Positions 391-4,945 of a stretch of 24,143 bases of DNA are shown one piece after another. Source of the stretch: a virus (lineage: Duplodnaviria; Caudoviricetes). Location of the stretch: positions 1-24,143 of IMG/VR virus record IMGVR_UViG_3300044670_002514; one strand, given 5' to 3'. The notes below the pieces were generated by a model. The model made no database searches, was not told where the DNA came from, and saw only the letters and a program-made list of their open reading frames with translations. How positions within the stretch are numbered: the first letter of the stretch is position 1; every line of letters starts with the position of its first letter. A program made the position numbers and the translations under genes.

Positions 391-2226
391 TTATTGAGCT
401 GGTGAAACTAGATTTTGTGTTACGGGTGCCTGGTCTACAGCCGGTAATGACATGGGTTCTCCACCACCGCCTCCTCCACCACCTATATTTGTATCTCCAC
501 CCTGAATGATATAGGTATCACCCACTTGAGCAATCTGTCCACTCTCCAACATACTTGCTATTATTGAATTAACCTGATTTCTTTCACCCTGAGCTCTTGA
601 TCCAAATCGAGCGAGTGGCATACTTCTATCAAACAATTCGTTTCTACCAACTGCGGAAATCCCTCGACCCTTCATACTGTTTAGTCTAAACCTATCAACT
701 CTGCTGTTTAGATCCATATCAATTGGCTCGTAGGGATCATTAAGATTTGTATTGGCAAAGGTATTATAATCCATAATTTGTTTATAACTTTCCCATGTCG
801 ACATATCATTAGGATCAAACCCTGGTGCCTTTTCTGGGTATCTAAAAAAGTGTTTTTCATCGGCCCATTTTTTTAACTCTTCGGTAGCCATAGACATTAC
901 ATAGATCGCATATTGCCCCGTATCACCTGGCGGAAGACCCATATCTCCATAATTTCTATGTAATTCTTTCATACTATTTTGTATTTGTAATAATATGGCT
1001 ATACCACCCTTACCTCTTTCAGTCGCTACCAGTTCAATATCTTGCAACGCTTTTCGCATGGGACCCGCTATATCACTAAACTCACCTGCGGGGCCAGCAC
1101 CCAAACCAAACTGTAATGCCATACCCGGCACACTTCCGGCTATCCTGAACGCAGTTGAAAGTCCTTTTGCTACAAACGAAGGAGTATTTAATATCTTTGA
1201 GGCAATCCTTAAACCAGGTGTTTTTGCAATCACTGGAGGCACTTTTGCCTTTGCCACCGTATTGGCACCTAACTCTAATGCAGCCGAAACAGGATCAAGC
1301 GCGGCCACAAGAGCAGTTGGTGCAGCCCGGTTTATGGTGCGCCGTGATAAGCTTAGTGATCCCGATTGGTAACTTTTTAGACGAGTATCACCACCATCTA
1401 TATCGGGAGGAGTCAGCCGCATAGTAGGATCTGCTACTAATGGTTTTGTAACTGTCGTGGGATCTGCACTTAATGATGGGGTGTCAATAGATGGTGCGGT
1501 TGGTGAAGTCGGAGTATTTATTCTGTTGACCAGAGCATCAGCGCCACCCGTAAGTTTTTTGGCAACCCCATCCTTAACGCTATAATTATTACCGGCTCCA
1601 TCGGTCCATGTATTACCAACCATATTTTTTGTTAGATTGATTGGTGATCCCTTAAAGGTAATGGTGGGTTTTGGTATTGGTTTTGGAATTACAATATTAG
1701 GAGATGATACCACTTTTTGGGCGACTAATTTAGGACCGGGTTGCCGGTTGAGCACGGTTGGATTGATTGTGGGTGATTGAGACATGCCAGAATTTAATGA
1801 ACTTTTATCCAATTGGTTAGCCAGACCAGCAATTGATAACGTAATATCTCCATCAAGGGGATTAGCTAATGCCTCGGCTTTTGTTGCAACTAACTTTTTT
1901 TCAAAGTCAGATAAAAAACCATCGAGTAGGGTCCTTACACCAACTACACCAGCTGCTGTTGCAGCCGCAGCCTTTGCAAGGTTAGATATACCCGAAGTAG
2001 AGCTCTTATCATCTCTTCGCTTTGGTTCCGGTCTGGCCGCTACCTTTAGTTTTTTGTTCTCGGCCTCTAGCTGATCAAGCTTGTTACGTTCTTGATTCCT
2101 TATAAAATTACTAAAATTTTTGTTGAGGCCATCAACACCATCACCAACCCTATTAATACCCTCAAGGGTATCACTGTTAATTTTCTTTTGCTCTTCAAGC
2201 TTTCTGGCTAGTGATGTTAAACTCAT
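391..2226 (-). CDS. putative tail tape-measure / baseplate hub protein (gp29-like by position)
   Basis: 611 aa with a coiled-coil-like N-terminus and Ala/Gly-rich helical stretches. It lies directly downstream of gp26/gp51-like genes and is close in length to T4 gp29 (about 590 aa). No direct sequence motif recognised. Confidence 0.55.
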   Translation of the reverse strand: MSLTSLARKLEEQKKINSDTLEGINRVGDGVDGLNKNFSNFIRNQERNKLDQLEAENKKLKVAARPEPKRRDDKSSTSGISNLAKAAAATAAGVVGVRTLLDGFLSDFEKKLVATKAEALANPLDGDITLSIAGLANQLDKSSLNSGMSQSPTINPTVLNRQPGPKLVAQKVVSSPNIVIPKPIPKPTITFKGSPINLTKNMVGNTWTDGAGNNYSVKDGVAKKLTGGADALVNRINTPTSPTAPSIDTPSLSADPTTVTKPLVADPTMRLTPPDIDGGDTRLKSYQSGSLSLSRRTINRAAPTALVAALDPVSAALELGANTVAKAKVPPVIAKTPGLRIASKILNTPSFVAKGLSTAFRIAGSVPGMALQFGLGAGPAGEFSDIAGPMRKALQDIELVATERGKGGIAILLQIQNSMKELHRNYGDMGLPPGDTGQYAIYVMSMATEELKKWADEKHFFRYPEKAPGFDPNDMSTWESYKQIMDYNTFANTNLNDPYEPIDMDLNSRVDRFRLNSMKGRGISAVGRNELFDRSMPLARFGSRAQGERNQVNSIIASMLESGQIAQVGDTYIIQGGDTNIGGGGGGGGEPMSLPAVDQAPVTQNLVSPAQ

Positions 2227-2415
2227 TTAAATACCCTGCTGCGCCTTTCGCTCTTCGGCGATTTTTTTCATTTGTTCGATCAAAAGATTAACGTAAATTT
2301 CTCTCTCCCATGGCATCATTGTTTCTATGTCGCTGAGTGAATAACTATGGTTTTCCATTAGTTGAAAATTCACTTGATAATAATTAACCAGTGTATCATG
2401 AGAGAGAGCTATTAA
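2227..2415 (-). CDS. gp51: gp51-like baseplate hub assembly frame (62 codons), not in the ORF track; probably expressed as a -1 frameshift extension of the gp26-like gene
   Basis: Hand translation: LIALSHDTLVNYYQVNFQLMENHSYSLSDIETMMPWEREIYVNLLIEQMKKIAEERKAQQGI*. The YY-x-NF-x-LM...YSL-x-x-IE-x-MMPWEREIY pattern is the small gp51-like ORF that follows gp26 in T4-like phages. There is no ATG until codon 20, which is after the conserved YY..NF. Confidence 0.85.
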   Translation of the reverse strand, partial: LIALSHDTLVNYYQVNFQLMENHSYSLSDIETMMPWEREIYVNLLIEQMKKIAEERKAQQGI

Positions 2416-2421
2416 AAAAAA
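2301..2421 (-). promoter_or_regulatory. putative programmed -1 ribosomal frameshift signal (slippery heptamer + 3' stimulatory structure)
   Basis: mRNA reads CAG GAU UUU UUU UAA UAG. Heptamer U UUU UUU is at 2421-2415, followed by a 6-nt spacer. CUCUCUCUCAUG (2408-2397) then pairs with CAUGGGAGAGAG (2312-2301), and a nested hairpin spans 2374-2336. Confidence 0.75.
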
Positions 2422-3122
2422 TCCTGTAATCCCTGTAGTGTATATTTATTCTCTTTATCGCATTTATTGCAGACAAATTCTGCTTCATATTTTAAAGACG
2501 GTAAATCATTTACATATTCAAGTATTTTTTGATAATGTGATGTCGAAAGACTATCCATAAATTCTTTGACTTCTTCTTCTGGCTCATCTTTAAACATAAA
2601 CGAATCACTATCCGTATGAAGTGAGTGAAGACACATTAGAGATAGATGATAAAGAATCTCTGTATAGCTCTCACCCTTTAATATATTTTCTTTTTGAATG
2701 GCCTCGGAGTATCGGGGAAATCCCATGGTCAACTCCATTTCATCATTAAGTTTTATTTTGGTATTGGGAAAATCCTTTTTATTAATATTAATTGTTGACA
2801 CGTCAATATCAATAGAGTTTGGATGTTCACAATCACAACGTAAGAGTATAGTAGAAGTCTCTCCAACAGATTTGGATCTTATTTGAAGAAACATATATTC
2901 TATATCAAATGTTGCAAGTTTGGTTATATCAATATCTTCTTCTACACATGTCTTGACAATATCAGCAATGGCCTTAGCTGCCATTAGATCATCGCCTGAT
3001 TCAAATGCTAAGAGTAACACTTTTTCTTCACCTACATTATAGGGTCTAAAGTGTACTGATTGTTGGAGAGAAGGTAATGTGCAATTAAATTTTGGGTAAT
3101 TAGTATGCCTAGGAAGGGTCAT
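2412..3122 (-). CDS. gp26: baseplate hub subunit / assembly chaperone (T4 gp26-like)
   Basis: Motifs LPS...FRPYNVGEEKVLL and LATFDIEYMFLQIRSKSVGE, Cys pairs CDC and CNKC, and the C-terminal LQGLQDFF. SD GAGGA lies upstream of the start. Confidence 0.9.
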   Translation of the reverse strand: MTLPRHTNYPKFNCTLPSLQQSVHFRPYNVGEEKVLLLAFESGDDLMAAKAIADIVKTCVEEDIDITKLATFDIEYMFLQIRSKSVGETSTILLRCDCEHPNSIDIDVSTININKKDFPNTKIKLNDEMELTMGFPRYSEAIQKENILKGESYTEILYHLSLMCLHSLHTDSDSFMFKDEPEEEVKEFMDSLSTSHYQKILEYVNDLPSLKYEAEFVCNKCDKENKYTLQGLQDFF

Positions 3123-3134
3123 TTCAAATCCTCA

Positions 3135-3845
3135 TTAAATTATATTATTCAAGAACCCCACAATGTTCTGCCTTGCTGTACTTGTAAAGGCTTCTTTTAA
3201 ACTTGAGGGTGTTAGCACAAACGGAGCTACCCAATCGGTATAACTAAGTTGTATGTTTAATTCCACCACTCCATCAATATCATTATTGAGTTGAATGGAA
3301 TTCATAGTTGTGGGAAATGCATCTTTAAGTTGACATCTATAGACCACAATATCATTAAACTGATCATTAAGTCCTAGTAGAGTTTCTCCCAGCTGAAAAT
3401 CAGATAGGGATGGTAATACATTCCCCATACCACTAGAAAATTCTTTTCTAAATCTTTGTGGTAGGTTTTTTACTTTCTTAAATTGTTCAATTGTTACATC
3501 TCTTACATAATCCTTTTTATAACCAATTTCATATCTATTTTGATCTACCGCAAGTGATTGCCATGTTTCAAAATATTCCTTTACACCATAATTATTAAGT
3601 ACCTGAAATGTCATTGTTACATCTTGTATCAAATACCCTGTTGCTACTCTTTCGGACACCAATCCAAAATTAAAAGGAGTCGTCGTAACCTGACGTCCTG
3701 GCAGCTGCACATCCCGACATAGAATATTCATTTCTTCGGATCTACCACCAGGTAAAGAAGGAAGTTTTACTCGCCATAGATTATTACGAGCCAGACCGCC
3801 TTTTGCAGATACGAGGCTTTTAAACTGATCTACTGTACCAGCCAT
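3135..3845 (-). CDS. tail-tube-fold protein (gp19 family; probable gp54-like tail tube initiator)
   Basis: Motifs GGLARNNLWRV, LCRDVQLPGR, VKEYFETWQ, YKKDY and L-x-DAFPT...ELNIQLSYTDW are typical of the gp19/gp54 tube fold. Confidence 0.75.
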   Translation of the reverse strand: MAGTVDQFKSLVSAKGGLARNNLWRVKLPSLPGGRSEEMNILCRDVQLPGRQVTTTPFNFGLVSERVATGYLIQDVTMTFQVLNNYGVKEYFETWQSLAVDQNRYEIGYKKDYVRDVTIEQFKKVKNLPQRFRKEFSSGMGNVLPSLSDFQLGETLLGLNDQFNDIVVYRCQLKDAFPTTMNSIQLNNDIDGVVELNIQLSYTDWVAPFVLTPSSLKEAFTSTARQNIVGFLNNII

Positions 3846-4937: not shown

Positions 4938-4945
4938 TATAAATA
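4938..4945 (+). promoter_or_regulatory. T4 late promoter (gp55-dependent)
   Basis: Exact TATAAATA upstream of gp48, followed by SD AAGGA. Confidence 0.85.

Follow-up and report, generated by a model that had tools for sequence, protein, structure and literature searches.

A covarying long-range RNA stem behind the slip site of a gp26-gp51 junction in the T4 superfamily, a likely stimulator of -1 frameshifting

Six nucleotides (nt) past a slippery heptamer at the end of a gp26-like gene, a 12-bp long-range stem is under selection as an RNA helix, at a fixed spacing from the slip site. Comparison of homologous junctions indicates that this stem probably serves as 3' stimulator for programmed -1 frameshifting, by which a minor fraction of a 236-amino-acid (aa) gp26-like chaperone would be lengthened to a 298-aa gp51-like form. 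The stem lies on the minus strand of the window, i.e., the whole 24,143-nt stretch of DNA analyzed here, which comes from a marine T4-like phage (IMG/VR record IMGVR_UViG_3300044670_002514). The features of the junction and its surroundings, in window coordinates, are as follows.

2412 to 3122, minus strand: gp26-like open reading frame (ORF) of 236 aa, ending LQGLQDFF and a stop, the short "G" form (phrog_150, PF12322, fold match for residues ~1 to 96)
2430 to 2434, minus strand: SD-like AGGGA, 8 nt 5' of the heptamer; weak here, relatives being enriched for GGAGG-type motifs at this position
2415 to 2421, minus strand: slippery heptamer U UUU UUU, Asp-Phe-Phe codons, inside a U8 run (U UUU UUN in 80/80 loci, the best 80 of 219 relatives)
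2409 to 2414, minus strand: 6-nt spacer with the 0-frame stops UAA and UAG, read from the sequence
2397 to 2408, minus strand: 5' arm of the long-range stem; encodes Ala-Leu-Ser-His-Asp in the -1 frame (covariation at 2408, 2407, and 2404)
2336 to 2374, minus strand: nested hairpin, stable in this genome and not conserved in relatives (folding and comparison with relatives)
2301 to 2312, minus strand: 3' arm of the long-range stem; encodes Pro-Trp-Glu-Arg-Glu (covariation at 2301, 2302, and 2305)
2227 to 2415, minus strand: -1 frame "T" extension of 62 aa, gp51-like, predicted fusion of 298 aa (phrog_634, phrog_150)
3135 to 3845, minus strand: tail-tube-family gene, upstream context (phrog_45)
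391 to 2226, minus strand: 611-aa ORF, downstream, in the tape measure gene position (assigned by position; no family match)

Slip site and frame change at the gp26-gp51 junction

On the minus strand, the last codons of the gp26-like ORF are CAG GAU UUU UUU UAA. The UAA (2414-2412) directly abuts the heptamer (2421-2415), and a second stop, UAG, comes next. From the heptamer, the -1 frame is open for 62 codons, to position 2227, and has its first ATG at 2358, 19 codons in. Contigs from 4 of 4 DNA runs bridged the U run without an indel, which rules out an assembly error in the run. Farther upstream, in the 5' part of gp26 (2934-3086), contig breaks and raised depth in runs X2 and X4 suggest strain variation or a shared segment.

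The gp26-like ORF matched phrog_150 (E 7e-53) over profile positions 5 to 232 of 282, and the -1 peptide matched phrog_634 (E 1.5e-24) as well as positions 235 to 281 of phrog_150. Since the ORF and the -1 peptide match adjoining parts of phrog_150, fused forms exist. Among the 219 relatives found by protein, which include a locus identical to the window's protein (L001), the T peptide lay at -1 behind U UUU UUN in 80/80 of the best 80 loci; two of the 80, being truncated, were left out of further counts. In loci found without DNA patterns (the pattern-free set, 48 distinct sequences), UUU UUN at T1-T6 was invariant in 50/50 loci, compared to a background of 78 to 79% per codon. In the larger junction set described below, a 0-frame stop was present at the heptamer or one codon past it in 324 of 337 junctions of the Leu-Ser-His (LSH) type. 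At L025, L027, and L028, and in 13/337 LSH-type loci, this stop lies 8 to 9 codons past the slip site; at these loci the 5' arm is coded in two frames and would be opened by ribosomes that do not shift. As is expected of a bacterial -1 frameshift, the heptamer is phased and conserved and the conserved -1 ORF is reachable through the slip alone. Motifs of the form U_UUU_UUY are among the efficient ones in E. coli, according to the accessible part of PMC4066793.

Cultured phages chosen for spread gave the same picture, with the T frame at -1 in 12/12 and U UUU UUN in 10/12. The two Ackermannviridae among them carry the tetramer U UUC in place of the heptamer; at both loci (L593:2150-2175 and L595:2335-2360) the U UUC at the end of gp26 is followed by UAAUG, in which the stop overlaps a start in the -1 T frame, an arrangement that points to either single-tRNA slippage or translational coupling. 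An ATG overlaps the gp26 stop in 8 of the 12 cultured phages, and in those 8, T could be made by coupled translation. That overlap, together with the 35- to 60-aa "gp51" annotated in databases, would also fit a scheme without any recoding, in which a short gp51 has a gene and a start codon of its own and the stem controls initiation there. We consider such a scheme improbable for the window. Here the first ATG comes behind the conserved LSH..NYY segment, which itself matches T4-type gp51 (profile positions 1 to 49, E 5e-14 to 2e-8), T4 gp51 and the phrog_150 profile both represent the fused form, and the invariance of UUU UUN in the pattern-free loci exceeds its background.

The long form might alternatively arise by transcriptional slippage on the U run, with one added U, in which case the stem would be incidental or would act on RNA polymerase. 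This is very improbable. Although the run is U8 in the window and at least U7 in 159/337 LSH-type junctions, only six U's are present in 178/337 LSH-type and 69/77 other junctions; for bacterial transcriptional slippage, the accessible part of a review mentions runs of 9. The run always keeps the X XXY YYZ codon phase, and the 3' arm, ~110 nt downstream, would be untranscribed while the polymerase is on the run. Contigs X16, X17, and X18 from RNA libraries also cross the run without an indel; this argument is weak, since contigs drop rare variants, and they cannot show expression.

Covariation of the outer stem

The arms CUCUCUCUCAUG (2408-2397) and CAUGGGAGAGAG (2312-2301) form 12 pairs, one of them U-G (2401-2308), and enclose 84 nt; the spacer between heptamer and stem comprises 6 nt (2414-2409). 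An earlier note on this DNA, made from the sequence alone, had described the stem with these coordinates, pairs, and spacing, all of which are correct on the minus strand. It had also recognized the 3' arm as the codons of the PWERE motif. The 5' arm is likewise made of -1-frame codons (Ala-Leu-Ser-His-Asp), and two conserved protein motifs thereby double as the arms of one RNA helix. Because the register of the stem pairs third codon positions with third codon positions, a clean covariation test was possible.

Junctions were collected by pattern scans in which third codon positions were left free. The scans gave 505 loci, from which one with stops in the T frame and others that were incomplete, of T4 type, or off the fixed-spacing pattern were excluded; the 494 usable junctions were reduced to 414 at <90% identity, consisting of 337 of LSH type and 77 others. 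The His and Pro-Trp-Glu columns were set by the search patterns and hence carry no covariation evidence.

Covariation across homologues, on which the earlier note had staked the stem, was present. Among the 337 LSH-type junctions, pair 2407-2302 was C-G in 179, U-A in 79, C-A in 32, and U-G in 8, and pair 2404-2305 was U-A in 148, C-G in 103, C-A in 27, and U-G in 11. These were the two top downstream pairs by MI-APC (z ~22; next downstream pair, z 9.4) and were third and fourth over all 18,915 column pairs, the top two being upstream at 2461-2468. High-MI pairs in 2449-2468 were attributed to a probable indel in the ungapped upstream alignment and were omitted from later tests. The odds ratios (OR), ~55 for 2407-2302 and ~51 for 2404-2305, were significant in all four GC3 quartiles, and the two pairs took ranks 1 and 2 among 1048 pyrimidine/purine control pairs (ln OR of 3.9 versus 2.05 for the next pair). 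The quartiles and the control pairs rule out GC content as the source of the covariation.

The same two pairs stood out when descent was taken into account with a tree from which the stem codons had been left out. Over 168 independent sister pairs, the two sides changed together (p 1e-7 for 2407-2302 and 3e-6 for 2404-2305; ranks 1 and 2 of 5129), with one cross-register control reaching p 0.01, and parsimony required at least 34 and at least 36 switches between C-G and U-A, respectively. At the first pair of the stem, 2408-2301, C-G can flip to G-C: a C at 2301 (Glu to Gln; 20 sequences, 8 parsimony steps) was accompanied by G at 2408 in 19/20, compared to a base rate of 118/337; the sister-pair test for this pair was not significant (p 0.18). 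Toward the distal end, 2401-2308 (Ser3-Trp3) was paired in 238/337 junctions and 2398-2311 (His3-Pro3) in 203/337, the latter with no significant sister-pair covariation. The conserved core is thus the proximal ~7 bp, and the distal pairs are weaker.

Codon usage in the arms followed the helix. Leu was encoded by CUY in 289/337 junctions (22% background), Arg by AGG in 182/321 (13% background), and Ser by UCN in 322/337 (63% background); codon choice, rare codons included, serves stem pairing. In the 48 pattern-free sequences, 82% of the outer helix was paired; 2407-2302 (U-A in 24 and C-G in 15 of the 48) showed 15 two-sided changes, and 2404-2305 was unpaired in 27/48. A covarying 3' structure is therefore found within the range of 5 to 9 nt past the heptamer that is expected for bacterial -1 frameshifting. 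For comparison, the accessible part of PMC3458567 gives 5 to 8 nt as the typical spacer between slip site and structure.

Folding energies of the outer stem

Both the outer stem and the nested hairpin were part of the minimum-free-energy fold of 2440-2295, whose -33.5 kcal/mol (z -3.29) was matched by 1 of 200 shuffles. In this genome the arms of the outer stem pair with -21.1 kcal/mol, as against an average of -7.0 over 5000 synonymous recodings (p 0.0006), and in relatives with -14.9 kcal/mol compared to -6.4 for recoded arms, a gap of 8.5 kcal/mol. A stem of -12 kcal/mol or better was predicted in 263/337 LSH-type junctions and 5/77 others, which leaves 74/337 and 72/77, respectively, below this threshold strength. 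The alignment fold of 100 random members returned precisely the 12 pairs. An Rfam search of the whole window gave no family at gathering score and, near the site, one chance-level match (drum, E 0.85); promoter and terminator scans at the site gave nothing above shuffles.

It could be argued that the arms are complementary simply because of the LSH and PWERE protein motifs, phylogeny, and GC content. Indeed, 7 of the 12 pairs involve near-fixed first or second codon positions, and the His and PWE columns are fixed by the search patterns. However, synonymous positions covary in register alone, and they do so in all GC quartiles and in the sister pairs; moreover, recoded arms pair worse by the 8.5 kcal/mol noted above, and rare codons keep the pairs. 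Together, the covariation, sister-pair, recoding, and parsimony results refute this explanation, which we hold to be hardly credible.

A second structure at the same distance in other lineages

The 77 non-LSH junctions, many of which are cyanophage-like by peptide, mostly lack the long stem. Instead, the 56 Met-Ala-His junctions carry a local 11-bp hairpin in which 2409-2399 pairs with 2389-2379 (window numbering), with a mean pair probability of 0.8 to 0.86 (n = 56, added after a further scan). At hairpin pair 2401-2387, 74 Met-Ala/Ser-His junctions had U-A in 49, A-U in 7, and G-C in 5; the A-U and G-C states took 4 parsimony steps each, each with an amino acid change. The compensated combinations GCU/GAG, GCA/GUG, and GCG/GCG are seen at L099, L103, L105, L113, and other Met-Ala-His loci. 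Junctions of the Val-His and Ile-His types have a 5-bp hairpin alone. Two unrelated helices with a common start 5 to 6 nt past the heptamer are what a frameshift-stimulator role predicts, and the local hairpin at the same distance is the best argument that the long stem would play this role as well.

The comparison between the two structures also bears on a different job for the stem. Covariation shows selection on the helix, not the helix's job, and it is equally compatible with a stem that stimulates slippage, one that prevents re-initiation, and one that protects from decay. The frameshift may thus be real and the stem selected to block re-initiation or scanning into the T frame, so that no free T-only protein is made, or to shield the T segment from decay; the stem starts immediately past the stop, the first in-frame ATG (2358) lies within the region that it encloses, and the T segment would be mostly ribosome-free. 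We judge these jobs unlikely, because the two structures, unrelated as they are, both start 5 to 6 nt past the heptamer and because selection is strongest nearest the slip site and weakest distally. Re-initiation is further disfavored by the Met-Ala-His hairpin, which leaves the internal ATG uncovered.

Enclosed region and internal SD

The earlier note had placed a nested hairpin inside the stem and had proposed a multi-stem stimulator. The hairpin is present as written at 2374-2336 and folds in this genome, with -11.1 kcal/mol compared to -4.0 for recoded copies (p 0.0035, 2000 recodings; the element was chosen post hoc). Across relatives, however, its pairing did not exceed the level expected from independent columns and its register was predicted in 6/150, which rules it out as a conserved element. 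The commonest inner helix of any register was found in 37/150 relatives; inner helices are not conserved, and a multi-stem stimulator is weakly supported. The enclosed region as a whole folded 2.5 kcal/mol better than recoded copies, compared to 1.1 to 1.4 kcal/mol for control segments and 2.3 kcal/mol for stem-less relatives. This excess of structure is small and unspecific, with variable helices, and the nested hairpin may at most be a variable helper that draws the arms together.

At the position of the internal SD, relatives use GAG in 130/214 Glu codons (25% background), and 264/414 relatives match a list of stimulatory SD motifs, compared to 39% of recoded copies; the list consists of the motifs reported to stimulate frameshifting in E. 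coli in the accessible part of PMC4066793. The AGGGA of the window does not match this list, and its -4.9 kcal/mol is near the recoded mean of -4.6. Hence, the position of the proposed SD, 8 nt 5' of the heptamer, was correct and SD motifs are enriched there across the family, but the motif of this genome does not qualify as one of them. Across relatives, stem strength and SD strength showed a weakly negative correlation (rho -0.23).

Identity of the two protein forms and neighboring genes

The short form matched PF12322, the T4 gp26/gp51 family, with 163.8 bits (curated cut-off, 24.5). An AlphaFold model of this form (pLDDT 88.5) was compared with 48,161 chains, the top three being 3FGX, 3KLU, and 2OB9 (Z 8.0, 7.1, and 6.9, respectively; residues 1 to 96), with middling scores (root mean square deviation of 4.4 to 5.4 Å, 85 to 87 residues aligned). 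All three are called tail assembly chaperones in the accessible part of PMC9603447. Foldseek gave no match in the PDB at E <= 0.001, with an HK97 chaperone at rank 15 (E 2.4), and returned gp26-family proteins from a viral library. The N-terminal domain of the short form is thus predicted, at these middling scores, to have a tail-assembly-chaperone-like fold.

The 611-aa ORF begins right behind the T stop (UAAAUG) and has a coiled-coil-like start, a Pro/Thr-rich middle, and a Gly-run end; profile searches and the ESM Atlas returned no family for it. The gene at this position varies among relatives (peptidase, lysozyme, or putative tape measure), and HTVC008M has an annotated putative tape measure two genes behind gp51. 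Between the 611-aa ORF and the end of a convergent gene at 2-262, which we take to be gp32-like, a GC-rich hairpin at 355-390 has U-rich tails on both strands and probably forms a bidirectional terminator; folding of the intergenic region 263-400 was no better than that of shuffles (z -1.1). Exact matches to TATAAATA, the T4 late-promoter motif, are present on the plus strand at 4938, 17721, and 20192, with none on the minus strand.

Comparison with known frameshift systems and with T4

The gp26-gp51 signal is likely a frameshift of the lambda G/GT kind, in the T4 superfamily, with a covarying stimulator. To the extent that the accessible sources describe lambda G/GT, a -1 slip near the end of the chaperone gene yields a short and a longer form there as well, and the order of tail tube, G, T, and long ORF is shared (here with the tube gene upstream and the 611-aa ORF by position). 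As in G/GT chaperones, the N-terminal domain matches the folds of HK97 gp13, YqbN, and Rbstp2171. Unlike the case for lambda, the phage belongs to the T4 superfamily, G has 236 aa and includes a second domain as well as CxxC motifs, a covarying 3' stimulator is present, and an internal SD is found family-wide, although it is weak in this genome. The literature on tail-chaperone frameshifts, in the accessible portions and with few subscription papers covered, describes no 3' stimulator or internal SD.

The signal also resembles those of E. coli dnaX (SD plus stem-loop), IS911, and IS3/IS3411, in which a heptamer is followed after a short spacer by a 3' structure; in IS911 the stimulator is an SD with a three-way-junction stem, and in IS3/IS3411 it is a pseudoknot (PMC5009743 and PMC4066793, accessible parts). 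Like the dnaX and IS911 signals as these sources present them, most relatives have an internal SD within 6 to 17 nt. In contrast to the dnaX and IS signals in those accounts, the slippery sequence is U UUU UUN in place of A AAA AAG. Also unlike them, the helix closes an 84-nt region without conserved inner structure, so that a three-way junction of the IS911 type with conserved inner helices is not seen, the arms are conserved shifted-frame protein motifs, and a local hairpin substitutes in other lineages.

In T4, two divergently transcribed genes without a frameshift encode the two proteins, whereas here one gene would yield both forms. In T4 (L599:1303-2729), as at L203 and L598, divergent gp26 and gp51 genes precede gp27-28-29, and the T4 annotation includes an internal start, gp26'. 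In T4, Aes508, and Thanatos-1, gp26 corresponds to the G profile alone, and gp51 consists of a weak G-like part plus T in one frame; the T4 proteins gave E 1e-18 for gp26 against G, and for gp51, E 1e-6 against G and, in the same frame, E 2e-8 against T. Gp26 (208 aa) and gp51 (249 aa) of T4 are hub assembly chaperones, with the function of gp51 listed as unknown and gp51 required yet absent from the particle, according to the accessible part of PMC3004832 (Leiman et al. 2010). The G-T frameshift is called conserved "except T4" in the accessible part of PMC5009743 (Atkins et al. 2016). We found no report of a gp26-gp51 frameshift or stimulator in T4-like phages in the literature within our search, which covered few subscription papers.

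Proposed mechanism and implications

In the mechanism that we favor, once the two Phe codons occupy the P and A sites, the base of the stem would reach the mRNA entry channel of the ribosome and make it pause, and in most relatives an internal SD 8 to 10 nt upstream would add tension. Most ribosomes would then terminate at the adjacent UAA and release the short form, and a minority would slip to -1, read LIALSHD...PWERE, and complete the 298-aa long form. The outer stem would thereby set the short:long ratio. If the two forms act like lambda G and GT, the short one may coat the tape measure, and the long one may connect the tape measure to the tail or hub component that comes next.

A broader and rather doubtful extension of this mechanism is that T4 gp26/gp51 is a G/GT pair frozen by gene duplication and that most of the T4 superfamily still frameshifts with interchangeable stimulators, of which the long-range stem would be self-limiting. 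Only a slipped ribosome would melt the stem and hold it open, for ~36 codons past the partner of the 3' arm; followers would meet no stimulator, and the resulting refractory period would keep the long form low at any ribosome load.

The covarying stimulator is a separate line of evidence for a programmed event at the gp26-gp51 overlap, as opposed to an annotation quirk, and different stimulators appear to have arisen at one site. By implication, hundreds of annotated "gp51" mini-genes would be the ends of fusion proteins. The junction pattern matches ~17,000 IMG/VR stretches (an estimate from 1/64 parts) and thus concerns a very common group of marine phages. The natural compensatory changes supply the mutations for a reporter, and the role of T4 gp26/gp51 becomes testable.
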